A program made the translations under genes and the position numbers. From Bryobacterales bacterium (GTDB lineage Bacteria > Acidobacteriota > Terriglobia > Bryobacterales > UBA6623), in the NCBI GenBank assembly GCA_965219585.1, contig CBDCOA010000003.1:2001375-2065374 (forward strand): a stretch of DNA of 64,000 bases, given 5' to 3'. How positions within the stretch are numbered: position 1 is the stretch's first letter; each line of letters opens with the position of its first letter. Shown here one piece after another: positions 1-44,600 of this stretch. The notes below the pieces were generated by a model that saw only the letters and a list, made by a program, of their open reading frames with translations, was not told the origin of the DNA and did no database searches.

Positions 1-3000
1 CGGCAGCTTTGCCGATTGGTTGGAGGCGGAAGGCGTGCCGCGGGGGGCTTGGGAGGCACTGCCCGGGGACATGGAACGATTGTCGCGATCGTACGCTCTG
101 GCGGCTCTGGAGGCATTGGGCTGGCACCGCGAGAGAGGGGCGGCGGTCGATCCGTCGCGTTTGCGCAGAGAGTTGCGGGTGGTAGCGGGCCACAAGCGCT
201 TGCTGCAGTGCCTGCTGGGGATGCTGGCGGAGGCCGGGGTCTTGCAGAGGAGTGGGGCGAAATCCCGCGAGTGGGTGGTGGCCGTGGGTGCGGGAGAGAC
301 CCTGCCCGATGGCCTGGTGGAGTCACCCGCCGGGCTGGGCGAGAGCCTGGCGGAGAGGCACTTGCAGGCCACCCACGAGCTGGGTCTGCTGATGCGCTGC
401 GGGGGAGCATTGGCGGAGGTGTTACGGGGGCGGGCGGATCCGTTGGATCTGCTCTTCGGCGATGAGGGCTGCGGGGCGGCCGAGCTGTACCGGGAAGCAC
501 CGTTGCTGCGGGCCGCGAACCGCATGCTGGGTGCCGCGGTCAAGTTGCTAGTGGCAGGCTTGCCGGAGGAACGGCGTCTGCGGGTGCTGGAAGTAGGTGC
601 CGGCACGGGCAGCGCGACGGCGGAGGTGCTGGCAGCGCTCCCGAAGGGGCGGTTTGACTACGCCTACACGGACATCTCGGCGGGGTTCTTTGCGGAGGCA
701 GCGGAACGGTTCGGTTCCGCATTCCCGGGCATTGAGTACCGCGCGCTGGACATCGAGGCGGACCCGACGGCACAGGGATTGGATGCGCACGGGTATGACC
801 TCGTGATCGCCGGCAATGTGTTGCACGCGACGCGGGATCTGGAGCGGACGCTGGCGCACTGCCGTGGTCTGCTGGCGCCGGCCGGGCAGCTGGTAGCGCT
901 GGAGACCTTGCAACCGCAAGGGTGGCTGGACCTGACGTTCGGGTTGCTGGAGGGCTGGTGGCGGTTCGATGACCGCTACCGGGACGAGCACGCCGTGGTG
1001 GAGGCGGACGTTTGGCGGCAGGCCCTGGCGGAGGCGGGTTTCGGCAGCGTGGAGGTGCTTGAGGGGGGTGTCGGGGACGTGGTCGCGCACGGCGTGATCG
1101 TGGCGCGGGGGCCTCTCGAGGTCGAAGAGGCCGCTGGCCTGTGGGTGTTGGCAGGCGAAGGGTCGGAACTGGTTCGGGAACTGGCCGAGGCGCTGGTCAC
1201 GCGCAATCAGGCAGTGATCGTGGCGGGCGGCGACGCGTCCGAAGTGCCGCCGCCGGGCATCACGGCGGCATATGTCGATCCAGCGAAGCGCGAGGCCTGG
1301 CGTTCGCTGCTGGAGGACTTGCCCGCCGGGCCCCCGTTGCGGGGCGTCGTGCATCTGGGTGCGCTGACGGGGTGCGGACAAGCGGCCACGACCGAGGAAT
1401 TGGCGCATGACACAACCCGAGTGGGCTCGGAGGCATTGGCGCTGGTGCAGGGACTGCTGGACGCGGCCGTTGAGCCCGCGGACGGGCTGTGGTTCGTGAC
1501 GCTTGGCGCGCAAGTGGTCGAGCGCGAGCGAGGCGGCCAGTTGGCTGGGGCGACGCTGTGGGGCCTGGGCAAGACAGTGGCGCTGGAAGCGCCGCAGTTG
1601 TATCCGCGGCTGGTGGACCTCGACCCGTCTCAGACGGTGCGCGCCGAAATGCTCGCGGACGAGTTGCTGCATTCCGACCGGGATGCCCAAGTGGCTCACC
1701 GCGGCGACAGGCGCTATGCCGCCCGACTGGCACGCAGCGCTGGGACAGGGTGGTTGCGACTGCCAGAGGATTCGGCTTGGCGCTTGGCACGCGATCCGGA
1801 CGGGGTCTTGGCCGACCTGCAGGCAGGGCCGGCTGAGCTGGCCGCCCCCGGGCCCGGCGAGGTCCGCGTGCAAGTGACCGCGGCAGGGCTGAATTTCAAA
1901 GACGTTCTGATCGCGATGGGCCTAGTCGACGCCCACGTTCCCCTGGGATCGGAGTTCTGCGGCCAAGTGACTGCCACGGGTCCGGGAGTCACCGCGCTGG
2001 CGGTCGGCGACCGGGTGGCCGGTCTGGCAGGAGGCGCCTTCGCTTCTGAAGTCGTCACGCGCGAGGAACTGGTCGCGAAAGCACCCGCAGGAATGCCGGT
2101 GGCAGAGTTGGCAACCGTGCCGATAACGTTCGTGACCGCGGCGCTGGCCTTTGAGCTGGCTGGCGTGAAGCCGGGAGAGCGCGTATTGGTACATGCCGCG
2201 GCCGGGGGAGTGGGCCAGGCGGCCATCCAAGTGGCGGGCGCGCTGGGGGCGGTCGTGATCGCCACTGCGAGTTCCGGGAAGCGCGACCACCTGCGGTCCT
2301 TGGGAGTCGAGCACGTGTTCGACAGCCGATCGACGGAGTTCGGCGAGGAAATCCTCGCCCTGACAGAGGGTGCCGGGGTCTCGATGGTCCTGAACAGCCT
2401 GACGGGGCCGGGCTTCATCGAAGCGAGCCTGTCGTGCCTAGGCGTGGGCGGCCGCTTCGTCGAGATCGGCAAGCGTGACATCTGGAGCGGAGAGCGGATG
2501 GAAGCGGCGAGGCCGGATGTCGGCTACCGCGTCTTGGCCGTGGACCAACTCGTGATCGATGAGCCGGCCACCGTCGGCGCGGTGCTCCGAAAGGTGATGC
2601 AGCGTGTCGAACTGGGGGAGCTGCGACCGCTGGAATACAGCGCGTGGCCCCTGGCGGAGGCGGCAGCGGCCATGGAGCACATGCGGTCGGGGCGCCACAC
2701 GGGCAAGATCGTGCTCAGGTTTCCACCGCTGACGGTTGTCGGGCTGCGGCAGGACGGCACTTACCTGGTAACAGGCGGGCTCTCCGGGATAGGGCAACTT
2801 GCGGCTGGCTGGCTGGCGGACCGCGGGGCGCGCTGGATCGTGCTGAACGGCCGGCGGGAGCCCGGGCCGGAGGCCCAAGCGGCGATCACGGGCCTTCGGG
2901 AGCGCGGTGTCGAAGTGCGCGTCGAACTGGCGGACGTGACCGACTCCGGGGCCGTGGACGCGATGCTCGAGCGGATCGAAGCGGCGATGCCGCCGCTGGC

Positions 3001-3800
3001 GGGAGTGATCCATAGCGTCGGGGTGATCGCCGACGCGTCACTGGCCAACCAAGACTGGGAGAGGTTCGAGCGCGTCCTGAGCCCCAAGGTTCTGGGCGCG
3101 TGGCAATTGCACAGGGCCACCGCTTCGAGAGACTTGGATCTCTTTATCCTTTTCTCAAGTGCGGCCGGCGTGCTCGGCAGCCCGGGCCAGGCCAACCACG
3201 CGGCGGCGAACGCTTTCTTGGACCACTTGGTACGCCACCGCCGTTCGATGGGCCTTTCCGGCCAGTCGATCGCGTGGGGCCCATGGTCGGAGATCGGCGA
3301 AGCGGCGGAGCAGCGGGACAGGCTTCACAGCCGCTTCAAGAGGCTCGGGATCGGCTGGATTGCGGCATCACGCGGAATGCGGGCCTTCTCGTGGCTGGTT
3401 CGACAGGACTTGCCGGCCAGCATGGCGGCTCCGGTGGACTGGCAACAATTCTCCGTGCATCTGAAGGACAGCCAGCTGCTAGGGGAGCTGCTCGCTGGCA
3501 CCCAGCGAGTGACCGGACTCGGAACACAGGCCGGCGACATGGTGTCACGCCTGCGGAATGCGCCAGAGGAAGAGCGCGTGCAGCTGCTGACAGCCCTGCT
3601 TCAGGCCGAGTCGCAGGCGGTGCTTGGCCTCCCCGCTCCTCCCGACCCGTCGGTGGGCTTCTTCGATCTGGGCATGGATTCGCTGATGGCCGTGGAACTG
3701 ACCAATCGGCTGAACCGAGCCTTGGCTGGCGAACACCATGCGTCCAGCAGCCTCGTGTTCGACCATCCTGACATCAACGCCCTGGCCCGCCACCTGACCG
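1..3800 (+). other. PKS module A (partial): cMT ~340-1115, psiKR ~1135-1780, ER ~1780-2730, KR ~2755-3460, ACP ~3570-3800
   Basis: cMT motif [12 protein letters not shown] starts at 578. ER has HAAAGGVG (~2190-2215) and RFVEIGK with the Lys codon aag at 2471-2473. KR has TGGLSGIG and QANHAAAN with His codon cac at 3197-3199. The ACP DSL Ser codon is at 3680-3682. Confidence 0.85.
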
Positions 3801-6800
3801 CGGAGCTGGGACTGGTCGAGGATCAGCGGCCGCAGGTCTTAGGGGAGCGCGCGCCAGCGCAGCACGACAGCGAATCGATAGCGATCGTGGGCATGGCATG
3901 CCGATTCCCGCAGGGGGATGGCCTGGCTGCCTTCTGGCGGCAGTTGGAGTTGGGCGAAAGCTCGGTGGTCCATGGCCGACCCGATTCGCGGGTCCGCCTC
4001 GGAGCATTCCAGGACCGGGGCGAGAGCCAGGGCAATGACGGCCTCCGCTGGGGCGGGTTCATCGAGGGGATCGACCAGTTCGACGCGGCATTCTTCCGGA
4101 TCACACCTCCGGAGGCACGCTTGATGGACCCGCAGCATCGAATCCTGCTGGAGACCACTTGGCATGCGATTGAAGAGGCAGGGCTTTCGGCGGCTGGCCT
4201 GGCGGGGAGTCGGACGGGGGTGTACGCCGGGATCGCCGGAAGCGACTATCGGGAGCTTGTCCTGCGGGCCGGCGAAGAGGCGGCGGGCCTGTATTCCGCC
4301 ACCGGCAGCCTTGGCAGCACAGCAATCGGACGGATCGCTTTTTCGCTGGGCCTCCAGGGTCCGGCAGTGGCGGTGGACACCGCCTGCTCATCGTCGCTCG
4401 TTGCCGTCCATCAGGCCATGGCAGCCCTGCAGCGGGGCGAGGTGGACTTAGCGCTCGCCGGCGGAGTGAACGCGATCCTCACAACAACATCGGCGGAAAC
4501 CTTTGCCAAGGCCGGCGCGATCGCGCGGGACGGGCGGTGCAAGACGTTTGACGCATCGGCCGACGGGTACGTGCGGGGAGAGGGCTGCGGGATCGTGGTG
4601 CTCAAGCGCCTCTCCGAGGCCAAGGCTGACGGGGACCGGATCTGGGCCGTGCTGCGGGGGTCGGCAATAAACCAGGACGGAGCGAGCGCAGGGCTGACCG
4701 TTCCGAACGGGACCGCCCAGCAGAGGGTGATCGAAGAAGCACTCGATCGCTCCGGGCTGAAACCGGCCGACGTGGACTACCTCGAAGCGCACGGAACGGG
4801 CACAGAGCTTGGAGACCCAGTGGAAGTCCACGCCGCTGCCGCGGTGTATGGACGCGGCCGACCGGCCGAGCGACCGCTGCTGATCGGCTCGGTGAAGCCC
4901 AATGTCGGCCATCTCGAGGCGGCTGCGGGCATCGCGGGCCTGATCAAGGTCGTGCTCTCCCTGCAGCGGGGCCTGATCCCGAAGCACTTGAACCTTCAAA
5001 CTCCGAGCCCGCGAATTGATTGGAGCGGACTCCCCGTGCGGGTCACGACAGAGGCCCTTCCCTGGCCAGCGTCACCCGGGCACCCGCTGCGCGCCGGTGT
5101 GAGTTCGTTTGGCATCTCTGGCACCAATGCGCATGTCATCGTCGAGGGGCACGCGGTTACCGACGCAGACGCGCAGGTGCCTTCGGCAGGATCCGTCACG
5201 GCTTCAACGCAGCCGACCGGACCCCGGCCACCGACGGAAGATGGACTGCAACCGCGCAAGGCACGCTTGCTGCCGTTGTCGGGTCGGTCGCAAGGTGCGC
5301 TCCGCGCTCTGGCGGTTCAGTATCGGTCGTGGCTGGAACACGGGTCGGACCAATGGCTCTCGCCTGGCCAGTGGCCCACCGGGGAGGCTGGCTCCCCGTC
5401 CGATCCGCCGGTTGCCGACGTGGCCTGGAACGCCGCCGTTAGCCGGGCCCACTTCCACCACAGAGCCGGTCTCGTCTTCACAGGGGTGGAGGACTTGCAG
5501 AAGAGTCTCGACCAACTGATCGCGGGCGGGCAGGGGCGCGAGGCGGTTGAGGAGCCGAAAGTTGCGTTCGTGTTCGCGGGTCAAGGCAGCCAATGGGACG
5601 GCATGGGACGGTCGCTATACGAGAGCGAGCCAGTGGTTCGGGAGGTCCTAGACCGTTGCGAGCAGGAGATCCGGCAGCTGCGCGGAGTGTCCTTGTTGGA
5701 GGTCATGTTTGGATCGGCGGGAGCAGCGGGGGATATCGACAGCACGGCTTGGACGCAACCCGCGCTCTACGCGCTGGAGTGCGCGCTGGCTGCGCTGTGG
5801 AAGAGCGTGGGAGTACGGCCGGCGGCAGTGCTAGGGCACAGCGTGGGGGAGATAGCGGCGGCGCAGGTAGCGGGGGTGTTCGGGCTGGAAGACGGGCTGC
5901 GGTTCGCGGCGGCGAGGGGAGAGCTGATGGGGTCGCTACCGGTGGAGGGCCCGGCCGCGGGCACGATGCTGGCAGTCTTCGATTCTCCCGAACGCGTGGC
6001 GATCGCACTGACGGAGCACAATGCTGCGACAGAGGGCGTGGGCCTGAGCCTGGCCGCGGAGAACGGGACGCACCGGGTGGTTTCCGGACCGCGGGCGGAT
6101 GTGGCGGCGTTTGCAGAGCGGTTCAAGAGCGCGGGCGTGCGGGTCGTCCCGCTGAACACAAGCCAAGCGTTTCACAGCGGGCTGATGGATCCGGTGCTGG
6201 ACGAGATCGAGGCGGCGGCGAGCATGCTTGCAACGGAACCCCCGTCGGCGCCCGTGATCAGCAACGTGACCGGGCGGGCGATCCGAGACAGGGAACAACT
6301 GGACGGGGCCTACTGGAGACTGCAGGCCCGGTCACCGGTAGCGTTCGGGGAGGGGATCGCGGCTCTGGCGGACCTGGGCGCGGAGCTTGTCATCGAGATA
6401 GGGCCGGATCCGGTGCTGGGTCCGTTGGTCGAGCAGGCTTGGCCGGCTCGAGCCGCTGACGGGACGGCCACGGAACTGGCGGTGATAGCCACCCAGCGAA
6501 AGGCAGCAGGCGAGCAGAGCGCGTTCGCGGAAGCGGCGGCCCGGGCGTACGAAGCCGGGGCCCCGCTCGACTTCGAGGGACTGTTCGCAGGCGAGACTCG
6601 GCGAAGGATTCCACTGCCCATGTATCCGTTCCAGCGCCAGCGTTATTGGGTGGCCGCGCCAAAGCCTCACGTGGCGAGCGGCGGGCACGGGCTCCTGGGC
6701 ACGCGGCGGGACTCCGCGCATGGGGAGGTCACCTTCGAGAACGAGCTTTCGGCGACTGCTCCGGAGTGGCTGGCAGATCACCGGGTGTTCGGACTGGTCG

Positions 6801-9800
6801 TTGCGCCGGCGGCCCAGTATGGGGCCGCGGCTGCCGAGGCGGCCGCGCTGACCTCGGGGTCAGTCTCGGCGGAGATTGAACAGCTGCAGATACTCGCTCC
6901 CTTGGTTCTGGGCGATGCGGATCCGGACAGCGACGGCGGCGCCCCGGAGCAGACCGTGCAGGTTGTGGTGGGCCGCCCTGGACGGTCCGCCGCCCGTGAA
7001 GTGAGCATTTATAGCAAGGCCCTGGAGGCCGGGACATGGACTCTGCACGCGACTGCCCGCGCGGTGCCGTGCGCGGCGGCCGAAGAGAGTGAGACCGACC
7101 TGCAGGAACTCAAGGAAAGCCTGTCACCCGTCGGAGTGCCAGAACTCTACGGGAATCTCGCGAAGAGCGGCATCGGGTACGGTTCGTCGTTCCGGGCGGT
7201 GGAAGCGGCCTGGTCGGGGCCGGACCAATCCATCGGCGAGATTGTGCTGTCACCCGAGTTGGACAGGGGAGCTTCGCTCGTGCACCCTGCGCAGCTTGAT
7301 GGATGCATCCAAATAGTTGCCGCCATGTCAAACTTCGGCGAAAGCGAAAGCTCGGAGGGGGGCACCTACGTGCCCCTCGGCTGGGATCGGTTGCGGCTGC
7401 ACAGAGCCCTGCCCGAGCGGGTGGTGTGTCACGCCGAAAGGCGAACTCGCGAAGGCGCGGGCCTTGACAATGCGGAGGCATCCCAGACATTGGTTGCGGA
7501 CCTGGCGTTCTTCGACCCGGAGGGCGCGCAGATAGGCGGCATCAGCGGGCTCGTGTTGAGACGGGTGACACGCGTGGCGCTGTTGTCAGCGGCCGAGGAT
7601 GTCGAGGATCTGCTGTACGAGGTGGCGTGGCGGAGACGACCGCATGTGAGCGGGATCTGCCCAGCCGATTTCCTGGCACGACCGACCGAAGCGAGCAAGC
7701 TCCGGGGCAGCTTTGCCCAGAGCCTTGAGGCAGCGGGGGTTGCGCCGGCCTCGTGGGATGCCTTGTTCACGGATTTGGGCCGTCTGGCGAGGTCGTATGC
7801 GTTGGCGAGCCTGGATGGCTTGGGCTGGCGGCGCGAGGCAGGGGCGGTCGTGGATCCGTCGGACTTGCGAAAACAGCTGAAGGTGGTGGCTGACCACGAG
7901 AAGCTGTTCCTGCGCCTGCTGCACATGTTGGCGGAGGCCGGCGTGCTGACACCAAAGGCGGCAGGCCCCCGAGGCTGGACGGTGGCCACCGGTGCGGATG
8001 ATGCACTGCCAGAAGGTCTGGCGGCAGAGCCGCGGGCTCTGGGGGAGCGGCTCTTGGGACAGCACGGGCACGGCTCGCACGAACTGGGCCTGCTGATGCG
8101 CTGCGGGCAGGCCTTGGCGGACGTGCTCCGGGGAAGGGTCGACCCCTTGGATCTGCTGTTCGGAAGCGACGGCGGCGGCGCGGCGGATTTGTACCAGGAG
8201 GCGCCGGCACTGCGGGCAGCGAATCAATTGGTCGGCGCCATCGTGGCGCTGCTGGGCGCTGGCCTGCCGGAAGGCCGCAGGCTGCGGGTGCTGGAGGTCG
8301 GGGCAGGCACGGGGAGCGCGACAGCGGAGGTGCTGGCAGTTCTGCCGAGCGGGAGCTTCGACTACGTCTACTCGGACATCTCGGCCGGTTTCTTCGCAAG
8401 CGCCGAGGAGCGCTTCGGCGGGCGGCAACAGGGACTTGAGTACCGTCCGCTGGACATCGAGGCAGATCCGACGGGACAAGGGCTGGAGGCTCACGGGTTC
8501 GACCTGCTGATCGCAGCGAACGTGCTGCACGCAACGCGGGACTTGGGGGAGACGCTGGAGCATTGCCGGAAACTGCTGGCACCGGCGGGGCAGCTGGTGG
8601 CCCTGGAGGTATTGAGGCCGCAAGAGTGGCTGGACCTGACGTTCGGCCTGCTCGAAGGCTGGTGGCGGTTTGACGACAAGTATCGGGGCGATCACGCCCT
8701 GCTCGGTGCAAGTGCATGGAAGCAAGCATTGTCGGAGGCAGGCTTCGGCGAGGTGGAGGTGCTGGAAGCGGCTGTCGGCGAGGAGGTCTCGCACGGGGTG
8801 ATCGTGGCGCGGGGGCCTGTCGAGGTTGAGGAGCAGCCGGGCCTTTGGGTGCTGGCGGGAGAAGGATCGGCGCTGGTCCAGGACTTGGCCCGCAGGCTGG
8901 CCGCGCACAACCAGGCGGTGATCGTGGCTGGGCCGGACACGGAGCGCGGGGAGGCGGAAGAGCCTGGAGTCACTTCGGCTTTCATGCACACCTCGAAGCG
9001 GGAAGCGTGGCGTTCCCTGTGCGACGATCTGCCAACGGACGTTCCATTCCGGGGCGTGGTGCACCTCAGCGGCCTGGAAGGGCACGGAGAGGCGGCTTCC
9101 ACTGCTGAAATGCGAGACGACGTGGCCCGCATCGGAGCAGAGGCGCTCGCGCTGCTGCAGGGACTGGAGGACGCGGGGGCGAAGCCGCTGGACGGGGTGT
9201 GCTTCGTGACGTGTGGGGGACAAGTGGTGCACAGCGAGGGATGCGGCCAGCTGGCGGGGTCGACGCTGTGGGGCTTGGGGCCGGCGGCGGCGCTGGAGGT
9301 GCCGCAGTTGCGTCCCCGGATGGTCGATCTCGACCCGCGCGGGCGGGTCCAGTTGGATGCGCTGGTGAACGAGTTGCTGCATGCCGACCAAGAGACCCAC
9401 GTAGCGCACCGCGGGGAGGCGCGCTACGTTGCGCGGCTCGTGCGTGGCTTGCGGGCCGGAGCCCTGCAGTTGCCGCAAGGGCCAGGCTGGCGCTTGGCGC
9501 GCAAAGAGGGCGCCGCGCCGCGTGGCTTGGCGGTTGAGACCGCAGGGCTGGCTCCGCCGGCAAGCGGCGAGGTTCGCGTGGCAGTCGCCGCGGCGGGGCT
9601 GAACTTCACCGACGTGCAGAGCGAGACGGAAATTGTCGGCGAGCCCATCGCTTTGGGCCGAGAGTTCGCCGGCCAAGTGCTGGCGACCGGTCCAGGCGTG
9701 GACACGGTGGCGGTCGGCGACCGGGTGGTCGGTCTCGCTTCGGGAGCGTTTGGCCCCGAGGCGCTCACCCGCGAGGAACTCGTCACAAAGGCACCCGCCG

Positions 9801-11698
9801 GGCTGCCGGCAGCGGCGCTGGCGACGGTGCCGAGGTCTTTCGTAACGGCGGCCCTTGCCTTCGAGCTTGCCGAAATGCAGGCCGGCCAGCGAGTGTTGGT
9901 GCACGCCGGGGCCGGGGACGTGGGACTGGCGGCGATTCAGTTGGCCCGGGCGGCGGGCGCCAAGGTGATTGCGACTGCCAGCGCTTGGCAGCACGCCTGC
10001 CTGCGGTCGCTGGGCGTGGAGCACGCGTTTGACGTCGGAACGGCGGCGTTCGGCGAGCAAGTGCTCGATGCGACCGAGGGAGCCGGAGTCGAGATCGTTC
10101 TGAACAGCCTTGCGGATCCAGGCCTAGTCGAGGCGAGCCTGTCGTGCCTAGGCCAGGGCGGGTGGTTTGTCGAGCTGTCTGGGCGCGATGTCTGGAGTGC
10201 CGACAAGATGGCAAGGGTCAGGCCCGACGTCGGCTACCACGCGCTGGCGCTGGATCAACTGGTGACCCAGGAGCCTGCGAGGGTCGGGGCCTGCTTGCGA
10301 GCCGTAACGCAGCGGCTGGGGGCCGGGGAGCTGCAACCACTGCCCCACGGCGCTTGGCCCATGGCGGAGGCAGCGGCGGCGATGGAGCACATGCGGTCCG
10401 GTCGCCAGGTAGGGAAGATCGTGCTGACGTTGCCGCCGCTGGCAACCGGTCGCCTGAGGGAGGACGGCACGTACCTGGTGACGGGCGGGCTGGCAGGCAT
10501 CGGGCTGCTGGCGGCCGGCTGGCTGGCGGACCGCGGTGCGCGCTGGATCGTGCTCAACGGCCGGCGCGAGCCGGAGGCAGAAGCCGAGTCCGCAATCGCG
10601 GACCTTCGGGCCCGGGGAATCGATGTGCGCGTCGAGCTGGCGGACGTGACCGACTCGGATGCGATGGACAGCATGCTGGAGCGGATCGAAGAGGCGATGC
10701 CGCCGCTGGCGGGAGTGATCCACAGCGCCGGGGTGATCGCGGACGCCTCGCTGGCCAATCAGGGCTGGGAGCGGTTCGAGCGCGTGTTGGGCCCGAAAGT
10801 GGCGGGCGCTTGGCACCTGCACCGCGCAACTGCGGATCGGGAATTGGACCTGTTCGTGCTGTTCTCGAGCGTCGCGGGTGTCCTCGGAAGCGCCGGACAG
10901 GCGAACCACGCGGCGGCGAACGCGTTCCTGGACCAGCTCGCGCTTCATCGCCGGTCGATGGGCTTGGCCGGCCAGTCGATTGCCTGGGGCGCATGGTCCG
11001 GCACTGGGGAAGCCGAGCAGTCCTGGGAGCGGATTGCCACGCGGCTGTCCTCGGCCGGGATCGGCTGGATCGTGCCGCGCCGCGGCTTGCTGGTGCTGGG
11101 GCGTCTTGTCAGGGACGATGTGGGGACGGGCGTGGCAGCGCCGATCGACTGGGCGCAATTCGCGTCCCACCTGGCAGCGACTCCGCTCCTGCTCGAAGAA
11201 CTGGTCGAGCCGGATGAATCGTTCGCGGAACTGACAGGCGTGCCGGAGGACTTGCTCGAGCGGCTGCGGGAAGCCTCGCCCGAAGGGCGCGAGGGGATTA
11301 TGGTGGAGTTCTTGGAGGCACAGGTGCAAGCAGTGCTGGGCGTCGACTCGCCACCGAACCCGAGACAGGGCTTCTTCGATCTCGGGATGGACTCTCTGAT
11401 GGCCGTGGAGTTGAGGAACCGGCTCAACCGAGCGCTCGCGGGCGAGCACACGGTGTCGAGCACGGTCGTATTCGATTTCCCGCGCGTCGCGGCGCTGGCC
11501 CGGCACTTGATGGATAAGATTGGCGCTCTTGGCGCAGCCGGTGAGTCGGTCGACCGGCGCAGTTCGCCGGACACCTCGGCACGCGGCACGAGGACAGACC
11601 AAGAACAGGCGAGAATTGCCAGTCTGGGGGAGGATGAGTTCCTGACAGAGGCATTCGAGACGCTCGGCGAGGAGTTCTCCGACGAAGACGATGGATAA
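1..11698 (+). CDS. Type I modular polyketide synthase, 5'-truncated by the window edge. Contains (module A, partial) cMT-psiKR-ER-KR-ACP and (module B) KS-AT-DH-cMT-psiKR-ER-KR-ACP, plus an acidic C-terminal docking tail.
   Basis: The frame is open from nt 2 to TAA at 11696-11698. The first residues [13 protein letters not shown] align with the post-DH linker of later modules (GSFAEWLAAGGVP in module D), so the start lies upstream of the window. In-frame motifs: c[10 protein letters not shown] / NVLHAT; [17 protein letters not shown]; [10 protein letters not shown]; [13 protein letters not shown]; [23 protein letters not shown]; AT GQGSQW, GHSVGE, QAFHS; [13 protein letters not shown]. Confidence 0.95.
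3878..11520 (+). other. PKS module B: KS 3878-5150, AT 5561-6650 (incl. post-AT linker), DH 6680-7585, cMT 8040-8820, psiKR 8840-9480, ER(degenerate) 9485-10435, KR 10465-11170, ACP 11285-11520
   Basis: KS has the Cys/His/His motifs. AT has GHSVGE and QAFHS. The DH catalytic His codon cac is at 6779-6781, and AQLDGCIQ is present. ER reads HAGAGDVG (Asp codon 9917-9919) and WFVELSG, with Gly (10181-10183) in place of the conserved Lys. KR reads QANHAAAN (cac 10907-10909). ACP Ser is at 11393-11395. Confidence 0.85.
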
Positions 11699-32600: not shown

Positions 32601-35600
32601 CGGACAGGACGCCTTGGCCTGCCAGGGGAGCCGGGCTGGCGCCTGACACGCGACACGGGCGGCGCGCCGGACGCCCTCAGGGTTGAGTCGGCCGGGCTGG
32701 CCGCGCCGGGTCCCGGCGAGGTCCGCGTGGCGGTGGCCGCGGCCGGGCTGAATTCTCACGACGTCCTGATCGCGATGGGCATCTCGGACCAGCACAGTCC
32801 GCTGGGCACGGAGTTCTGCGGCCAGGTGACCTCGACCGGCGCGGGCGTGACCGAGGTGTCAGCCGGCGACCGGGTGGTCGGCCTTGCCTCGGGAGCCTTC
32901 GGCCCGGAGGTCCTCGCAAGCGAGGAACTGGTCGCGAAGGCCCCCGACGGATTCCCGGCGGCGGCGCTGGCGGCGATCCCTGCGGCGTTTGTGACGGCCG
33001 AGCTGGCATTGGAACTGGGCGGCCTCGAGGCTGGCCACAGAGTGCTGGTGCACGCGCGGGAGGGGGATGTGGGCCTAGCGGCGGTCCAACTGGCGCGCGC
33101 GGCGGGCGCGGAGGTGCTTGCAACGGCAAGCACCGACATGCTTGCCTACCTGCGGTCGCTGGGTGTCGAGCACGTGTTCGACAGCCAAGCCACGGATCTC
33201 GGCCAGGAAGTGCTCGCGGCGACCGCGGGAGCCGGCGTCGGAATGGTGCTGAACAGCCTGGCGGAGCCGGGCTTCATCGAAGCGAGCCTGGCGTGCCTGG
33301 AGCAGGGCGGCCGGTTTGTCGAGATCGCGGGACGGGACACCTGGAGCGCCGAGCGGATGGCGGAGGCCAGGCCGGACGTGGGCTACCACGTGCTGGCCTT
33401 GGATCGGCTCGCGAGCGACGAGCCGGCGAGGGTGGGGACCCAGCTGAGGTCCGCGGTGCGGAGGATGGGAGCCCGCAAACTGGAGCCGCTGCCGCACAGC
33501 GCATGGCCGCTGGCGGAGGCAGGGGCAGCGATGGAGTACTTCCGGTCGGAGCGTCCCGTCGGCAAGGTGGTGCTGACGCTGCCGCGGCTGGCGACCGGGG
33601 GCCTGCGGGAGGACGGAACGTACCTGGTGACCGGAGGGCTGGCTGGGATCGGATTGCTGGCGGCCGACTGGCTGGCGGACTGCGGCGCGCGCTGGGTCGT
33701 GTTGAACGGCCGCCAAGAACCGGATGCCGAAGCGAAGCCGGCGATCGAGGCCCTGCGGAAGCTGGGAGTCGAAGTGCGCGTGGAGGTGACGGACGTGACC
33801 GACTCGGCGGCCGTGGACGGCATGCTGGAGCGGATCGAACGCACCATGCCGCCGCTGGCGGGAGTGATTCACAGCGCGGGGGTGCTCGCGGACGCCACCC
33901 TGGCCAACCAGGGCTGGGAACGATTCGAACGGGTGATCGGGCCGAAGGTGCTAGGGGCCTGGCACCTGCACACGGCAACCGCAGGCCGGGACTTGGACTT
34001 CTTCGTTCTGTTCTCGAGCATTGCGGGCGTGTTGGGAAACGCCGGCCAGGCGAACCACGCGGCGGCCAACGCGTTTCTGGACCAGTTGGCGTGGCATCGG
34101 CGGTCGATGGGCCTAGCGGGCCAGTCGATTGCGTGGGGGCCTTGGTCGGAGGTTGGCGAGGCCGAGGAACAGCGTGCGCGGATCGCGGAGCGCTTGGCAG
34201 CGAGCGGCGTGGGATGGATCGTTCCGCGCCGAGGCCTGCGAGTGCTCGACAGTCTCGTGCGGCGGGACGTGGTGTGCGCGACTGTGCTGTCGGTGGATTG
34301 GTCTCAGTTCGCGTCCCACCTGCCTGCCACCCTGCCACTGCTGCGAGAACTGGTGGCTCCGAGGGCCGGTGGACGGGGTGTGGCCGCCAAGGTCGACCTC
34401 GTCGAGCGCCTCAGAGCGGTGTCGGCTCGCGAGCGCGAACGGCTCTTGGCCGGCTTCCTGCAGGGCGAGGTTCAGGCCGTCCTGCGGCTGGCTTCCCCGC
34501 CCGAGGTGACCTCCGGGTTCTTCGACCTTGGGTTGGACTCGCTGATGGCCGTGGAACTGGGGAATCGTCTGAACCGGGCGTTCGGCGGGGAGTACAAGCC
34601 CACGAGCACGGAGGTGTTTGACTTTCCCGACATCAAGAGCCTGGCCGGACACTTGGCGGCAGCGTTCGGGGAGATCGAGGAAGCCCCGGCCGGGCCGGAA
34701 CGGCCGGTCCCGACGCTAGGACAGGAGGGCGGCATCGCGATCGTGGGCATGGCGTGTCGATTCCCGGGAGCGCGGGACCTGTCGGCATTTTGGGATGAAC
34801 TGGCCGGGGCCGGATGCGCAGTGACGCCGGGTCGCCAGGGTTCGTCGGTGGGGCCCTCGGAAGGGGATTTTCCGGAACAAGTGGGCGAACAGGACGCTCG
34901 TCGCTGGGGGGCGTTCGTCGACGAGATCGACCTGTTTGACGCAGAGTTCTTCCGCATCGCGCCCGTGGAGGCAGAGGTGCTGGACCCGCAACAGCGGATC
35001 TTGCTGGAGACGAGTTGGCTGGCGCTGGAGGAGGCGGGGATCGACCCGGGCCGGCTGAGAGGCGGCCGCACCGGCGTGTACGTGGGGATTGCGACCAACG
35101 ACTATTCGGAGGTGATTGAGCGAGGGGGGCGAAGGACGGGCGATTTGTACGTGGCGACCGGGAATTCGGGCAGCACTGCAATCGGGCGAGTGGCATTCTC
35201 GCTCGGGCTGGAAGGGCCGGCGATGGCCGTGGACACGGCCTGCTCGTCTTCCCTGGTCGCACTCCACCAAGGGGTGGCGGCGTTGGAGCGGGGCGAGGCG
35301 GACTTGGTGCTGGCGGGAGGGGTGAACGCGATCCTGACGCCGACCAGCACCGAACTGCTGGCCAAGGGGGGGATGCTGGCGCCGGACGGCGTGTGCAAGG
35401 CATTCGATGCGGCGGCAAATGGGTTCGTGCGAGGCGAGGGATGCGGGGTCGTGGTGCTGAAGCGTCTGCGGGAAGCGGAGGCGGACGGGGACCGCATCTG
35501 GGCTGTGATCCGGGGTTCGGCGGTGAACCAGGACGGGGCCAGCGCGGGCCTGACGGTGCCGAACGGGCCGGCCCAGGAGCGGGTGATCGGACAGGCGCTG

Positions 35601-38600
35601 GCGCGGGCAGGGCTCGAGCCGGCAGAAGTCGACTACCTAGAGGCGCACGGCACCGGGACGGAACTGGGGGATCCGATCGAGGTGCGGGCCGCTGCTGCGG
35701 CCTACGGGCGTGGCAGGGCGGCGAATCGACCTCTGTTGATGGGATCGGTGAAGACAAACATCGGCCACCTGGAAACGGCGGCGGGAATCGCCGGGCTGAT
35801 CAAGGTGGTGCTGTCGATGGAGCACGGAATGTTGCCGAAGCACCTGCATTGCCGGCAGCTGAATCCGCGCATCGACTGGGACGCGCTGCCCGTGGAGGTG
35901 ACAACGGAGGCCCGGCCGTGGCCGGCTTCGCCGGACCGACCGGTGCGGGCGGGAGTGAGTTCCTTCGGATTCTCCGGAACGAATTCGCACGTGGTCTTGG
36001 AAGCCCCCGAGAGTCACCGTCGCGGGCATGGCCCCTTGATGCCGATCGCCGCGGCGCAGGCTGGAACCGGCGGTCCCCCGGAGCCGCGCGGGAAGCGGCT
36101 CTTGCCGCTCTCCGGGAAGTCTTCGCTGGCGGTGCGGGAGTTGGCGGGCCGCTACCTGTCTTGGCTGGAGAGCCGGGGCGGCGTGCTGGGCCAGGGGGAA
36201 GAGTCGGAATCGCTGCTGGCCGACATGGCGTGGACGGCGGGAGCCGGCAGGAGCCACTTCGAGCACCGGGCCTCGGTGGTGTTCGGGGACCTATCGGAAC
36301 TGCGGGCCGCGCTGGAGGAGCTGGCCGCGGACCGGGAGATCGCGCGCGCAGCCCAAGAGCCGCAGGTAGCTTTCGTGTTCACGGGCCAAGGCAGCCAGTG
36401 GGCTGGCATGGGGCGCTGGCTGTACGAGCGGGAGCCGGTGGCACAGGCAGTGCTGGACCGCTGCGAAAAGGTAATGCAGGAATTGCGGGGAGCGTCCCTG
36501 CTGGAGGTGATGTTCGGGCAGCCGGGAGCGGCCGGGGATTTGGACGACACCGGATGGACGCAGCCGGCGCTGTACGCGCTGGAGTGCGCGCTGGCGGCAC
36601 AGTGGGCGAGCGTCGGACTGTCTCCGGTGGCCGTGCTGGGCCACAGCGTGGGAGAGATCGCGGCGGCGCAAGTGGCGGGGGTGTTCGAGCTGGAGGACGG
36701 TCTGCGGTTTGCGGCGGCGAGGGGCGAGTTGATGGGATCGCTGCCGGTGGACGGGCCGGAGGCAGGGGCCATGCTGGCGGTGTTCGCCTCGCCGCAGCGG
36801 GTGAGTCAGGCGCTGGAGGAGCACGCTGCGGGCGATGACGGATCGGGGCTGAGCCTAGCGGCGGAAAACGGGACGCACCGCGTGGTCAGCGGGCCGTTGG
36901 AGGAGGTGGAGACACTGGCAAAGCGCTTCGAGCAGGCGGGAGTGCGGGTGGCGCGGCTGAACACGAGCCACGCGTTCCATAGCACCCTGATGGACCCAGT
37001 GCTGGACGACATCGAGGAGGCGCTGGAGGCAGTGACCCTGGGTTCGCCCGCAGTAGCCTTGGTGAGCAACGTCACGGGCCGGGCGGTGCGCGAGGGCGAG
37101 CGGCTGGACGGGGCGTACTGGCGGCGGCAGGCGCGCGAGCCGGTAGCCTTCGCGGCCGGCGTACAGGCACTGGCGGAAATCGGCGTCGATGTAGTCGTCG
37201 AGATCGGCCCGCAGGCGATCTTGGGGCCGTTGGTCGAGCAGGCGTGGCCGGCCGAGAGCAGCGACGGAGCGGTTTCGGGACCGAGAGTGGTGGAGAGCCT
37301 CCGACGGGAGGCGGGCGGGGCGAACGGCTTCTCCGCAGCCGTGGCCGGCGCATATGAGGCCGGGGCGGCGATCAGCTTCGAGGGCCTGTTTGCCGGCGAG
37401 ATCAGGCGAAGGGTGCCCCTGCCCGGCTACCCGTTCCAGCGGAAGAGGTTCTGGATTGAGCAAGGCAAGCGCAAGGTGACCGAAGAGGGCCATGCGCTGC
37501 TGGGGGCGCGGCGCGACTCGGCACGAGGCGGGATGGCGTTCGAGACGGACCTGCACGCCACGGACCCGGCTTGGCTGGCAGATCACCGGGTGTTCGGCAT
37601 GGTAGTGGCGCCGGGTGCCTTGTACGGGGTGCTGGGGGTGGAAGCGGCAGCGACGACCGGCGGAACCGATGCAGTGGTGCTGCAGGACCTACAGTTGCAC
37701 GAGCCTATGATATGGCTCGAAGAGCCGGAGGATGGGCCGCCTGCCGGCGAGGGGCGCACCGTGCAGGTGTTCGTGGACGGAGCGGAGGGATCTTCAGGCC
37801 GGCTCTTCGAGGTCTACAGCCAAGGCAGCGGGGAGACTGCGTGGCAGTTGCACGCCACGGCGCGCGTGGAGCGGGGCGAGGCGGGCACGCCCGAAGCGAT
37901 CGGCCTGGGGGCACTCAGGGAGACCCTGTCGAGGGTGGACTCGACCGACTTTTACCGGAGCATCAGGAGGCGAGGCATTGTGCACGGTCCCGCCTTCCAG
38001 GGGCTGGCGGCCATCTGGTCCGGCCCGGGGGAGGCCATCGGCGAGGTGGTGCTCTCATCGCAGGCAGGTCCTGGCAGGTTGTGGATGCATCCGGCGCAGC
38101 TGGATGCGTGCTTCCAGGTGGTCGTCGCCACCGTAAGGGACGCCGAAGAGTTCGATTCAGACACCTACATGCCCATCGGATGGGAGCGCATGTGGCTTGC
38201 GGGCCCCGTGCCGGAGCGGATGTTCTGCCATGCGCGGTTGCTTGAGAGGCCCGATGCAGGTACCCCGGGTCCCGGGCCCGCCGAAGTGTTGGTTGCGGAA
38301 CTTGGGCTGTACGACATGCAGGGCGCGGCCCTGGGCGGAGTCAGGGGACTGGTGCTGAAACGCGCGACGCGTGCCGCGCTGGTGTCCGCCATCGAAGGCG
38401 TGGAGGACCTGCTGTACGAGACGGCGTGGCGGAAACAGCCCCGGGCAGGCAGACAGCGGGCAGCCGATCTCCCAGCGGCACAGGCCGGGTTGGAGCAACT
38501 CAGGGGCAGCTTTGCCGAGAGCCTTGCGTCGGAAGGCGTACCGCCGGAGGCTTGGTCCGCCCTGCATGAGGATCTCGACCGGTTGGCACGGTCATACGCC

Positions 38601-41600
38601 ATGGCAGGGCTGGAAGCCTTGGGCTGGCGGCGCGAGAAGGGTGCGGTCGTAGATCTGTCCCTGGCGCAAGAGCAGCTGAAGGTCGTGGGGGACCACCGGA
38701 GACTGTTCGGGCGGATGCTCGCCATGCTGGCCGAGGCCGGGGTCTTGCAGGCGGAGGCGGAGGGCACCCCGGGCTGGGCGGTGGCCGTCGGCGCGGACGA
38801 CGACTTGCCAGAAGGACTGGCGTCGGAACCTGGGGCCGTCGGGGCGCGGCTGCTGGAGCGGCATGCACACGGCGCGCACGAGCTGGGCGTGCTAATTCGC
38901 TGCGGGGAGACGCTAGCGGACGTGCTGCGGGGCCACGCGGATCCGCTAGAAGTGCTGTCCGGCCCCGAAGGTGCCGGGCTGGCGGACATCTACCGGCACG
39001 CACCGGGGATGCGCGCGGCGAACCGTATGGTCGGCAAGACGGTGGCAGCGCTCGTGGCGGGCCTGCCCAAGGGCCGTCCTTTGCGGGTGCTCGAGATCGG
39101 GGCCGGCACGGGCAGCACGACGGCGGAGGTGCTGGCAGTGCTGCCGGCGGGTCGATTCAGCTATGTCTGCACGGACAGCTCCCAGAGTTGCCTCGCAGAG
39201 ACAGAGGCGCGATTCGGTGCGGGAGTCGAGTCCCGGGTGCTGGACATCGAGGCGGACCCGGCAGGCCAGGGGCTGGAGCCGCACCGATACGACCTGGTGA
39301 TCGCGGCGGACGTGCTGCACGCAACACGGGACCTCGGGAAGACACTGGAGCATTGCCGGAGGCTGCTGGCGCCGGCTGGGCACTTGGTGGTGCTGGAGTC
39401 CCTGCGCCCGCAGGCATGGCGGGACCTGACGTTCGGGTTGATGGAGGGTTGGTGGCGATTCGCGGACCCGTACCGGGACGATCAAGCCTTGGCGGGAGCG
39501 AGCGCGTGGCGGCAGGCGTTGGAGGAATCGGGCTTCGGTGACGTGGAAGTGCTGGAGAGCGGCGCGGAGGACACGGCCTGGCAAGGGGTGATCGTAGCGC
39601 GGGGCCAATTCGAAGCGGAGGAAGAGCCGGGCGTGTGGGTGCTGGCCGGAGGGGCTTCAGCGCTGGCTCAGGAGCTGGCCGAGAAGCTGGAGACACGCAA
39701 TCAGGCGGTCGTCTTGGCGAGGCACGACACGGACCAACTGGCAGGAGTCACGACGGCGTATGTGGACCCGACGAGGCGAGAGGCCTGGAGCTCGCTGCTG
39801 GCGGATCTGCGCAGCGAGGCCCCTCTGCGAGGCGTGGTGCACCTAGGCGCCCTAGAGGGCCACGGAGCAACGGCGACGACGCCGGAACTGGCACAAGACA
39901 TGGCCCGGATCGGGGAGGGGGCTCTGGCGCTGCTCCAGGGGCTGCAGGACGTGGGGGCTGAGCCCCTGGAAGGCATGTGGTTCGTTACGCGGGGTGGCCA
40001 AGTGGTCGAGCGCGAGCGAGGCGGCCAATTGGCAGGGGCGACGCTGTGGGGCTTGGCTAGGGCGGTGGCGCTGGAGGCACCGCAGTTGCGCTTGCGCATG
40101 GTCGATCTCGATCCGCGGGCACCGCTCCAGGCGGACTCGCTGCTAGACGAATTGCTGGATGCCGACCGGGAGACGCTCGTGGCTCACCGAGGCGCCACCC
40201 GCCATGCAGCGCGGCTCGTGCGGGCCGCCCGGACGGGCCGCCTGCGGCTGCCGGAGGAGGCGGGTTGGCGCCTTGCCCCGGGCACCGGCGGAAGCCTGGA
40301 TGACCTGAGGGTAGAGCCCGCAGGCCTGCCCGCACCGGGAGAAGGCAAGATCCGCGCATCCGTGAGCGCGGCAGGACTCAACTTCTACGACGTCTTGTCC
40401 GCAATGGGGGTTGTCGATCTGTACAACCCCCTGGGCGCGGAGTTCTGCGGTCGGGTAATCGCGATCGGTCCGGGCGTAACCTCAGTGGCAGTTGGAGACC
40501 GGGTGGCCGGCCTCGCCGCGGGAGCCTTCGGCCCCGAGGTTGTCACGAGCGAGGAACTGGTCGCGAAGTCGCGTTCCGGCTTGCCGGCGGCGGCGCTGGC
40601 AACCGTGCCGACGACTTTCCTGACAGCGGCCATAGCTTTCGAGCTGGCCGGCCTCCAAGCCGGCGACCGGGTGCTAGTGCACGCCGGGGCCGGCGGTGTG
40701 GGCTTGGCGGCAATCCGCTTGGCCCAGGCTGGCGGCGCGGAGGTGATCGCGACGGCGAGCAGCTGGAAGCGCCCGTATCTGCGGTCGCTGGGCGTGCAGC
40801 ACGTGTTCGACAGCCGAACCACGGCCTTCGGCGAGAAAGTTCTGGCGGTTACCGGGGGAGCGGGCGTCGAGGTCGTGCTGAACAGCCTGACGGGCCCGGG
40901 ATTCATCGAGGCGAGCCTTGCGTGCCTGGGCCAGGGCGGCAGGTTCGTCGAGATCGCCAAGCGCGACATCTTCAGCGCGGAGCAGATGGCGGCGGCCAGG
41001 CCAGATGTCGACTACCACATCCTGGCGCTCGATCAACTCGTGATCGATGAGCCGGAGAGAGTCGGAACACAGCTGCGGGCGTTGATGGATCGGATCGACT
41101 CCAAGGATTTGGAGCCGCTCCCGCACAGCGCATGGCCCCTAGCGGAGGCGAGCGCGGCGATGGAGCACATGCGGTCGGCGCGCCATGTGGGCAAGATTGT
41201 GCTGACGCTGCCGTCGCTGGCGTCCGGCGGGCTGCGGGGGAACGGCACGTATCTGGTGACGGGCGGCCTAGCTGGGATTGGACGACTGGCGGCGACCTGG
41301 CTGGCTGACAACGGGGCGCGCTGGATCGTGCTGAACGGCCGGCGGGAGCCCGACTCCGAAGCCGGCGCAGCAATCGCGGCGCTGCGGGAGCGGGGAGTCA
41401 CGGTGCAGGTGGAACTGGCGGACGTGACCGACTCCGCTGCCCTAGACTCCATGCTAGAGAGGGTCGAGGCTGCGATGCCGCCGCTGGCAGGGGTGATTCA
41501 CAGCGCGGGGGTAATCGCCGACGCATCGCTGACCAACCAAGACTGGGGGGGATTCGAGCGAGTCTTGGAGCCGAAAGTGCTTGGGGCCTGGCACCTGCAC

Positions 41601-44600
41601 AGGGCGACGGCGGACCGGGACTTGGATCTGTTCGTGATGTTCTCGAGCATTGCTGGCGTGCTGGGGAATGCAGGTCAGGCGAACTACGCGGCGGCGAACG
41701 CGTTTCTGGACCAGTTGGCGCGGCACCGGCGGTCGGTGGGATTGGTCGGCCAAGCGATCGCGTGGGGGGCTTGGTCGGAAGTGGGCGAAGCAGAAGAGCG
41801 GCGTGCTCGGATCGCGCAGCAGTTGGCGGCGGCCGGCCTGGGCTGGATCACGCCGGAACGTGGCCTGCGTGTCTTCGACAAGCTGCTGCGGCAAGACTTG
41901 GTTGCCCCGGCAGCGGTCTCGATGGACTGGCAACGGTTCGCAGCCCTTCTGTCAGCGGACCAGCCCCTGCTGGACGAGCTTGTGGACTCCAAGCCCGTAG
42001 CAGAGGAGACAGCCCCAACGCTCGATCTCAGGAACCGTCTGCGAGAGGCGTCGCCCGGGGATCGCGAAGCCCTGCTAATGGAAATCGTGCAGGGCGAGGT
42101 CCAAGCGGTCCTGCAGCTTGCCTCACCCCCAGACCCGGCCGTCGGCTTCTTCGATCTCGGCATGGATTCGTTGATGGCGATTGAGCTGACGAACAGGTTG
42201 AACAGGTTGTTGACTGGCGAGTACCGGCTGGCTAACACCGCCGTGTTTGACCATGTCGACATCGCGAGCCTCGCACGACACCTGGCCGTGGAACTGCGTG
42301 TCGTTGAAGATGAGAGCCCGGAACCCGAACGGGCCGCGGCCCGCAGGCCGGAGGATGGCGGGATCGCTGTAGTCGGAATGGCGTGCAGGTTCCCGGGCGG
42401 GCAGGACCTGTTCAGGTTCTGGCAACAGCTCGAGGACGGGGGCAGCGCAATCACGGCGGAACGGCCAGGGGATCTCTGGGTCCATGCTGTCAGCGATTCC
42501 AAGGCGAGCTCTTCAGTCCGAGAAGCCGGTCGTTGGGGAGCGTTCATCGACGGGATCGACCAGTTCGATCCCGGCTTCTTCCGGATCACACCGATCGAGG
42601 CAGAGGGGATCGATCCGCAGCACCGGCTGCTGTTGGAGACAAGCTGGCACGCGCTAGAAGACGCAGGGATTAATCCCGGCTCTCTGCGTGGCCGCCGAGC
42701 CGGGGTTTTCGTGGGGATTTCAGGCAGCGAGTACAAGGATCTGATCCAGGCAAGCGAGAGCGACTTCTTCGATATCACGGCCCTGGAAGGGAACAGTACG
42801 AGCACTGGGGTCGGCCGCGTCGCGCACTTCCTCGGCCTCGAGGGTCCGGCAATGCCCGTGGACACGACGTGCTCTTCGTCGTTGGTGGCACTGCACCAGG
42901 CTTCGGCGGCACTGCGCTTGGGAGAAGCCGACCTGGCGCTGGCGGGGGGCGTGAACGCGATTCTCTCGAAGCGTGCGACCTACGGGATGGCCGGAGTGGG
43001 ACTGCTGTCGAATGACGGGCAGTGCAGGGCCTTCGATGCCTCGGCCAACGGATACGTGCGAGGAGAGGGCTGCGGCATGGTGGTCCTGAAGCGCCTGGCT
43101 GACGCAAAACGCGACGGGGACCCAATCTGGGCAGTGATCCGAGGATCGGCCGTGAACCACAACGGGGGCGGGGCGGGCCTGACCGTGCCGAACCTTGGGG
43201 CGCAGAGTCGGCTGCTCAGGGAAGCGCTCGCGAGCGCCGGGTTGGAGCCCCCCGACGTGGACTATCTTGAGGCACATGCGACGGGGTCGCTGCTTGGGGA
43301 CTCAGTCGAGTTGCAGGCCGCAGCCGAGGTGTACGGGGCGGGACGATCTTCCGACAGACCCCTGCTGCTGGGGTCCGTGAAGTCGAACATTGGGCACTTG
43401 GAGGCCGCTTCCGGCGTGGCTAGCCTGATCAAGGTTGTCCTAGCGATGCAGCGGCGGACCATTCCCAGGCACCTGCACTTCCGCGAGCCAAGCCCTGAGA
43501 TCGATTGGGGAAACTTGCCAGTGAAGGTCACGTCGGACGAAACTCCGTGGCTTTCGGCACAGCCTGGCTGCCCCTTGAGGGCAGGCATCAGTTCCTTCGG
43601 GCTCTCGGGCACAAACGCACACGTGCTCGTCGAGAGTTGCCAAACGACGGGCACCCATTCCGAGCGGGCGGCGCTCTCCGTGGCAGTCCCGATGCACTCT
43701 TCCGCGGGCTCAGAAACCACGGAGGGATCGTTCCGGGAGCGGGAGACAAGGCTGCTGCCGCTGTCGGGGCGGTCCGCGAGGGCGGTCCGCGACCTAGCCG
43801 GCCAATACTTGTCTTGGCTCGAACAGAATGCGGAGCGGCCAGCCGCGGAACACGAGGGTTCGGACCCGCCTGCCACCAGTGCAGACGCTGCCTCGCTGCT
43901 TGCGGACATGGCGTGGACGGCGGGAGTGGGCCGGAACCACTTTGGCCATCGGGTGGGATTGGTGTTCGGAAGTGCCGACGAACTGCGGGAAAGGTTGACA
44001 GCATTGGCAAGTGCGCGCGACGCCGCCCACTTTGCCGGACGTGCACCGAGTGTGGCATTTGTGTTTGCGGGCCAAGGCAGCCAGTGGCCAGCCATGGGGA
44101 GGGCACTCTACGAGAGAGAGCCAGACGGGCGGGCGATCTTGGAGCGCTGTGACCGGGTTATGCGGAAAGTGCGCGGGGTATCGCTGGTGGATGCGATGCT
44201 CGGTCGGCCAGGTGCCGCCGACGATCAGGGCGATCCGCTTTGGGCGGAACCGGGGCTGTACGCGGTGGAGTGTGCGCTGGCGGCCCTGTGGGAGAGGGTG
44301 GGGGTACGACCAGTCACGGTGCAGGGACACGGCGTGGGCGAGTTGGCGGCGGCCAAGGTTGCCGGAGTGTTCGGCCTGGAAGACGGCCTGCGACTCGCAG
44401 CGGCGCGGGGTGCGCTGAGTAGTTCCTTGCCCACAACAGGTCCGCGCGCCGGAACCCTCCTAGCCGTCTCCGCTCCCATGGAACGCTTGGAGACTGCCTT
44501 GGGCGCGCTGAATTCCGATTCAAGTCACGCTGGGCCGAGCGTGGTGTTGGATTCCGGGACACACCGCCTAGTCCATGGACCGGTGGCGGACATGGAACGG

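Follow-up and report, generated by a model that had tools for sequence, protein, structure and literature searches.

What does a polyketide synthase (PKS) do with a ketoreductase (KR) that carries His where the catalytic Tyr is expected: does the domain still reduce its substrate, or has it been kept only for structure? The question is raised by a 64,000-nucleotide stretch of DNA from a Bryobacterales bacterium (assembly GCA_965219585.1, contig CBDCOA010000003.1, positions 2,001,375 to 2,065,374 of the forward strand), which we refer to as the window. A locus in its left part is predicted from sequence to encode a cis-acyltransferase (cis-AT) modular PKS with at least six modules, A to F, followed by a terminal ketosynthase (KS)-AT. 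Pfam matches and module alignment give every module the fatty acid synthase (FAS)-like order KS-AT-DH-CMT-ER-KR-ACP, where DH is the dehydratase, CMT (or C-MT) the C-methyltransferase, ER the enoylreductase, and ACP the acyl carrier protein. The KRs of modules A, B, C, and E are of the His type, while those of D and F have Tyr. The best overall explanation, which we consider highly probable, is that these KRs belong to a lineage that travels with C-MT domains and in which His is the usual residue at the position of the “catalytic Tyr” of short-chain dehydrogenases/reductases (SDRs), that the KRs of A, B, C, and E are active, and that the Tyr of D and F is derived.

Histidine and tyrosine in the six ketoreductases

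Two giant open reading frames (ORFs) on the + strand hold all six codons in frame. The first, 2..11698, is open at the left edge of the window, and the second, 11691..45158, encodes 11,155 amino acids. A reading of the DNA made from its letters alone (hereafter the sequence-only reading) had reported a switch of a single codon between CAC and TAC in the KR motif, and this is borne out, each codon lying on the + strand and in frame within GQAN[H/Y]AAAN. CAC is found at 3197-3199 in the KR of module A (2741..3412, + strand, as are all domains below), at 10907-10909 in B (10448..11122), at 18804-18806 in C (18345..19022), and at 34056-34058 in E (33597..34274), whereas TAC is found at 26421-26423 in D (25962..26639) and at 41685-41687 in F (41226..41903). 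The NADPH motif TGGL(S/A)GIG (TGGLSGIG in A), the PKV Lys, the FSS Ser, and the AAAN Asn are retained in all six KRs, again as first reported. The description of these domains as “otherwise perfectly conserved” was too strong: their amino acid identity to one another is 73-83%.

To grade the integrity of each domain, we counted deviations at columns that are near-invariant in database homologues: 29 columns for KR (at least 90% conserved in 757 reference KRs), 12 for DH, 48 for ER, and 49 for C-MT. Reference domains themselves show a median and a 90th percentile of 1 and 4 deviations for KR, 1 and 2 for DH, 1 and 4 for ER, and 1 and 3 for C-MT. On this scale the KR of module A has one deviation, and those of B, C, D, E, and F have none. 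All six are matched by PF08659, with E-values from 3e-65 to 2.9e-130, in the position ER-KR-ACP. B-type KRs, which give a D-hydroxyl compatible with DH, are recognised by an LDD motif or at least its last Asp; in this region, the six read V(L/I)(A/S)D, with the final Asp kept. The best matches of the window KR in the PDB are mycocerosic acid synthase (MAS; E = 2.9e-45) and AmphB. DEBS KR1, AmphB KR2, and the KR of MAS have the same fold family, NADPH motif, Lys, Ser, and Asn as the window KRs; these canonical KRs have Tyr, as do D and F, whereas A, B, C, and E have His instead. In gap-free alignments to the solved KRs MAS and AmphB KR2, and to DEBS, the window His, including that of module C, falls on the catalytic Tyr, and the YxxxN that defines a PKS/FAS KR is present in D and F only. 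No other KR residue switches together with the His or Tyr between D/F and A/B/C/E, and no compensating Tyr was found near the active site in the His-type KRs searched.

Association with C-methylation and direction of the change

The sequence-only reading had proposed a database search for His-type KRs and their module contexts. Carried out, it shows that they are common, occur in many phyla, and mostly stand alongside a C-MT. With the KR of module C as a protein query, the best 120 matches included 85 His-type and 21 Tyr-type KRs, in a search that relies on shared words and so favours His. A DNA pattern for the His-type motif, which likewise selects its sample in a way that favours His, yielded at least 117 loci across many phyla (one genome per species), the best nucleotide identity between the window and these loci being ~73%. 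Hosts among the matches listed include cyanobacteria, Chloroflexota, Acidobacteriota, sponge-associated Gammaproteobacteria, Latescibacterota, Rhodobacteraceae, Micromonospora, Streptomyces, and others, and many of the listed loci come from sponge-associated or other uncultured bacteria. In 114 KRs from these loci, conservation is at least 90% at TGGxxGxG and at the catalytic Lys and Ser, and the consensus of the LDD region is G+L.D. When module contexts were assigned with domain hidden Markov models (HMMs) built from the window's own modules, nearly all His-type loci among the matches listed had a C-MT in the same module as the KR. The same is true of all six modules of the window.

A less biased sample was obtained by using the Tyr-type KR of module D as the query against 1.84 billion representative proteins and scoring all KRs in the best 150 megasynthases. 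Among 456 KRs in complete modules, those accompanied by a C-MT numbered 11 with His and 1 with Tyr, while those without a C-MT numbered 5 with His and 430 with Tyr (Fisher's exact p = 1.6e-17, a value that overstates the evidence because the sequences are phylogenetically related). A further sample, centred on C-MTs, contained 85 His-type and 35 Tyr-type KRs. These counts indicate that His predominates in C-MT modules, where it is nevertheless not obligatory, and that few other modules have it. Several actinomycete KRs with GQANHAAAN, from Streptomyces, Micromonospora, and Amycolatopsis, have no detectable C-MT (L028, L041, L042, L060, and L061, the last with an intact DH motif, HVVLGSTVVP); they are exceptions, which may have a separate origin. 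A different kind of protein, a stand-alone CMT-KR without an ACP (~903 amino acids), was seen in P0311, P0315, P0318, P0322, P0326, P0328, P0332, and P0355; all are Tyr-type, and at least two such proteins come from Desulfobaccales and Syntrophobacteraceae.

As for the direction of the change, the four His-type KRs had originally been described as having their Tyr replaced by His. The nearest relatives and a neighbour-joining (NJ) tree reverse this description. For each window KR, D and F included, 24-25 of the 25 nearest KRs are His-type (24 of 25 in the case of D), and the six KRs, with the topology ((((D,F),A),(C,E)),B) in which F is sister to D, form one clade nested among His-type outgroups. 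The collection of nearest relatives is partly enriched in His, and the top matches from the sample collected with the Tyr-type query, P0255 and P0147, are also His-type. The nearest relatives thus indicate that His is the ancestral as well as the majority state in this family and that the Tyr of D and F is derived. On the most parsimonious reading of the sequences, this Tyr arose by one CAC-to-TAC change in the module from which both D and F descend, which would also have had a decayed C-MT. A Q..W..F signature (ANQGWERF) was also seen after the LxD motif, ~47-49 residues before the His or Tyr (e.g., window 18650-18680); its Trp is present in 82% of His-type and 12% of Tyr-type KRs. D and F retain the signature, which suggests that they are KRs of the His lineage that now carry Tyr.

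Decayed C-MTs, too, are found in the window in D and F only. The C-MT of D (23232..24359) shows six deviations (F152 deleted, N173H, F229C, P255L, G318E, and F322S) and that of F (38502..39635) four (F152S, F229C, A233T, and N272D); the two have a deletion of 3 amino acids in common, and both are probably inactive. Of 118 database C-MTs, 115 have Phe at the positions of F152 and F229, which are substituted or deleted in D and F. Only one further sequence departs from Phe at both, namely P0123, which among database relatives with a Tyr-type KR is the closest. Within the close clade of the window, the combination of Tyr with a damaged C-MT (D, F, and P0123) is probably a single evolutionary event. 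In the modules with His-type KRs, the C-MT of A (2..1141), which is clipped by the window edge, looks intact, with 2 deviations in 49 columns and the His/Glu dyad and S-adenosylmethionine motif kept. Those of B (7703..8845; no deviations) and C (15600..16742; two deviations) are intact, and that of E (30852..31994; three deviations, including W320S) is borderline and probably active.

It could be argued that His and Tyr are simply equivalent, so that the variation is a neutral polymorphism, the association with C-MT a matter of common descent, and the Tyr of D and F unlinked to the decay of their C-MTs. A 211-tip NJ tree requires ~18 His-Tyr parsimony steps in either direction, which indicates that both states are viable, and neutrality is also favoured by the lack of any co-switching KR residue and by the fact that the KRs of C-MT modules largely form a clade of their own. 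Moreover, as a general rule, the link between a Tyr-type KR and a decayed C-MT is unsupported: the Tyr-type KRs of other C-MT modules mostly stand beside intact C-MTs, the median C-MT deviation is 1 in both the His and the Tyr group, and the low deviations in the whole Tyr-type set imply that Tyr and an apparently intact C-MT coexist. However, His makes up ~70-90% of KRs in C-MT modules against ~1% elsewhere, and the close-clade modules with Tyr (D, F, and P0123) are precisely those mutated at the otherwise invariant C-MT positions F152 and F229. We therefore regard neutrality as a serious alternative, if a somewhat doubtful one.

Conversely, the choice between His and Tyr might act as a tuned switch by which ketoreduction and C-methylation are coordinated, an idea that we put forward tentatively and think rather unlikely. 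A His-type KR would then be slower, or selective for α-methylated 3-oxoacyl-ACP, so that methylation comes first. Alternatively, His would remove a Tyr-dependent enolisation or epimerase activity, and the stereocentre set by the C-MT would survive; epimerising KRs employ the catalytic Tyr and Ser (PMC7327777). After the decay of a C-MT, a return to Tyr would be selected for, and the ancestor of D and F would be a case of this. If this were true, the locus would provide a natural H/Y pair in near-identical active sites for testing domain timing in a PKS module.

Active enzymes or structural remnants

Two interpretations of the His-type KRs had been offered at the outset: KR0 domains kept for structure, or non-canonical KRs that use His. 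According to the first, the four domains are reductase-dead, and modules A, B, C, and E would deliver (methylated) β-keto units. This would agree with the view that Tyr is essential in SDRs, a Tyr-to-Phe substitution being known to abolish KR activity (PMC7327777), and the absence of the canonical Tyr from A, B, C, and E is comparable to that in KR0 types (DEBS KR3 and PikKR3). It would also agree with the partial loss of reductive capacity in three of these modules. The ERs of B (9473..10435; six deviations, GGVG changed to GDVG), C (17370..18332; five deviations, GDVG), and E (32622..33584; six deviations, REGDVG) are decayed, as is that of the Tyr-type module D (24987..25949; seven deviations, GAVG). 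The DH of E (29841..30719) is dead, with three deviations that include the catalytic His changed to Tyr and the Asp to Glu.

The same pattern of decay, however, argues against a structural role. The sequence-only reading had called the DHs of B and C and the ER of A intact, and the column scores agree: both the DH of B (6689..7570, with DxxxQ) and that of C (14592..15467) have 0 deviations in 12 columns, and the ER of A (1763..2725, HAAAGGVG), the downstream partner of a His-type KR, has 0 in 48. The corresponding domains of the Tyr-type modules are intact as well, namely the DHs of D (22224..23099) and F (37494..38369), without deviations, and the ER of F (40251..41213, HAGAGGVG), with one. 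Decay has reached the domains that these proteins do not need (the ERs of B to E and the DH of E) but has spared the ER of A as well as the DHs of modules B and C, which makes KR0 unlikely. Module E is the only exception: with its DH and its ER dead, it has no functional DH or ER that depends on the KR. Furthermore, the His-type KRs are themselves intact, retaining the NADPH motif, Lys, Ser, and Asn not only in the four window domains but also across more than 100 diverse homologues.

Database-wide, the DHs and ERs that follow His-type KRs are as intact as those that follow Tyr-type KRs. In the collected sets, the catalytic His and Asp of the DH are intact in 97 of 100 modules with a His-type KR and 169 of 174 with a Tyr-type KR, and the GG motif of the ER in 105 of 107 and 55 of 59, respectively. 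Three complete single-module proteins, L004 (from Ruegeria spongiae), L006, and L021, have a His-type KR as their sole KR together with intact DH and ER motifs, a combination that KR0 does not readily accommodate. Loss of KR activity in other classes also looks different, C-type KRs being without the active-site Asn and C1-type KRs without both Ser and Tyr (PMC7327777); unlike these, A, B, C, and E lose only the Tyr, and the downstream DH/ER is intact (not in E). The KR0 interpretation is further at odds with a synthetase that works with His.

This synthetase is HMWP1, the product of irp1, which makes yersiniabactin and contains a KS-AT-CMT-KR-ACP module. Its KR has His at the Tyr position, in GQSAHALAC, just as the KRs of window modules A, B, C, and E have GQxxH. 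We read the domain in Escherichia coli CFT073, in which irp1 is frameshifted, and in the intact gene of Nissle 1917. It reads ...ILYSSAAATLGAPGQSAHALACGYLDGLA and was aligned gap-free to the window motif. Both HMWP1 and the window KRs have GVLADA(P/S)L, the NADPH motif, Lys, and Ser, and the HMWP1 KR region is found in 2266 of 5426 E. coli genomes. HMWP1 differs from the window modules in that it is without DH or ER and its C-MT adds two methyl groups. The alcohol of yersiniabactin presumably comes from the PKS β-keto group through reduction by this KR, an origin supported by the domain legend of a preprint (bioRxiv 10.1101/2022.03.18.483834). Four purified proteins, YbtE, HMWP1, HMWP2, and YbtU, suffice to make yersiniabactin, and hence the reduced product, in vitro (PMC5995452). 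As for the frameshift, irp1 of CFT073 (L120 29035-38522) has a deletion of 5 nt in the KR domain in comparison with Nissle 1917 and others (601 vs. 606 nt), which accounts for its annotation.

The literature contains a trace of the variant. According to a 2020 review, which refers to Keatinge-Clay (Nat Prod Rep 2012) on this point, the active-site Tyr of KRs is “sometimes replaced by histidine” (PMC7327777). In a literature search covering part of the field, this one sentence was the only explicit account of His-type KRs, and neither a dedicated mechanistic study nor a paper describing their association with C-MT was found. The His variant is thus already known in passing, with HMWP1 as a working example, and it is common and conserved, yet under-studied. 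Consequently, of the two initial interpretations, the His-using KR is the better supported, by its frequency in databases, by HMWP1, and by the review, although it does not stand as a new idea. KR0, in turn, appears quite improbable for A, B, C, and E.

Some points weigh against an active His-type KR and have to be set beside this evidence. In addition to the preference of two of our searches for His and the relatedness behind the Fisher value, the HMM length filters favour well-preserved domains, and intact DH and ER motifs are indirect evidence of KR activity. The window does not extend to the DH of module A. Among the PDB matches there was no solved structure of a His-type PKS KR, the top ones all having Tyr. 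Finally, HMWP1 is a distant relative in which Cys takes the place of the Asn four residues after the His; as a precedent, it therefore establishes that a KR can work with His, but not that the four window KRs are active. With these points taken into account, the His-type KRs of A, B, C, and E are, judging by their sequences, most likely active NADPH-dependent β-ketoreductases. More generally, the His-type KR is a widespread natural variant, typical of C-MT modules and probably active, rather than new chemistry or a dead domain.

The last alternative, that the C and T calls are sequencing or assembly errors in the consensus of repeated modules, could appeal to the modules being paralogous repeats and to the 99.4% identity of the ATs of D and E, which makes parts of the locus prone to mis-assembly, but it deserves next to no credence: over the 123 nt that surround the codon, the copies differ at 19-36 positions, and the stretch that stays identical next to it never exceeds 17 nt on either side, a divergence that makes a collapsed repeat or consensus error very unlikely; moreover, the same His is present in hundreds of independent homologues and in the 2266 E. 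coli irp1 genes.

If the His-type KRs are active, as we favour, the imidazole of the His probably replaces the Tyr hydroxyl as the proton donor to the carbonyl oxygen, beside Ser and Lys. From the integrity of the domains in each module, module A is predicted to yield an α-methyl, fully saturated unit, B and C an α-methyl enoyl unit, D an unmethylated enoyl unit, E an α-methyl-β-hydroxy unit, and F a saturated, unmethylated unit. An annotation based on the Lys-Ser-Tyr-Asn (K-S-Y-N) rule would instead call four of these KRs inactive, and probably many others in C-MT modules, and would predict ketones in place of hydroxyl, ene, or saturated carbons. The locus is of value because it has His- and Tyr-type KRs with the same catalytic motifs side by side, and it calls for caution with automated KR calls.

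Related loci, module ends, and neighbouring genes

As an orphan multimodular system of an uncultured bacterium, the locus is related to the FAS-like PKSs that contain C-MTs. Among such systems, SupA of sponge symbionts is a monomodular KS-AT-DH-MT-ER-KR-ACP protein and the proposed maker of methyl-branched fatty acids (PMC4245539). Compared by description only, Sup-type FAS-like PKSs have the same domain order with an embedded C-MT as the window, but SupA has a single module, whereas the window has at least six and a terminal KS-AT. In Moorena producens JHB (L118; CP017708.2 3211099-3235346), consecutive KS-AT-DH-CMT-ER-KR modules are spread over many short gene calls, and at least one KR is His-type (QGNHSAAN); this cluster with multiple C-MTs resembles the architecture of the window. 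P0284, also from M. producens JHB, belongs to a multi-CMT cluster, which is not clearly that of jamaicamide. A locus of Chrysosporum bergii (L001) has CMT-KR(His)-ACP followed by KS-AT-DH-KR. This arrangement would fit cyrB-cyrE. Two proteins labelled “McyG” by automatic JGI annotation have one His-type and one Tyr-type KR.

Within the window, the two PKS genes overlap: the second starts with an ATG at 11691, whereas the stop of the first ends at 11698. The N terminus of the second protein is a coiled-coil-like docking sequence. The second ORF closes with a KS-AT didomain (42402-45158, + strand) without an ACP or thioesterase. The terminal KS retains its Cys (DTTCSS) and both His residues. The terminal AT is probably dead, since its active-site Ser is changed to Gly (GHGVG) and its HAFH motif is gone. 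An ACP-KS-AT(-AT) ending is also found at many related His-type loci. When the modules are compared with each other, the AT of D (~21100-22100) and that of E (~28700-29700) have 99.4% protein identity, against 43% for the DHs of the same two modules. This contrast indicates that the modules are mosaics and points to recent gene conversion or segmental duplication.

Directly downstream of the PKS is a sulfotransferase gene (45651-46931, + strand; PF13469, E = 2e-33), which at this position is reminiscent of the sulfotransferase-assisted off-loading of CurM-type systems. It is followed by an ORF on the − strand (47381-48769) with only a faint likeness to α/β-hydrolases. Further on, at 50597-54408 (+ strand), lie PSCyt2/PSD1 (DUF1549/DUF1553) and DUF1501 genes, a pairing that is typical of Planctomycetota and relatives. 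Here the listed ORFs overlap (52456 vs. 52939), so that the true start of the DUF1501 gene is probably further downstream. The genes that flank the PKS include DUF1549/DUF1553/DUF1501, RelA, and TonB, and a flanking TPR gene is present in two metagenome assemblies.

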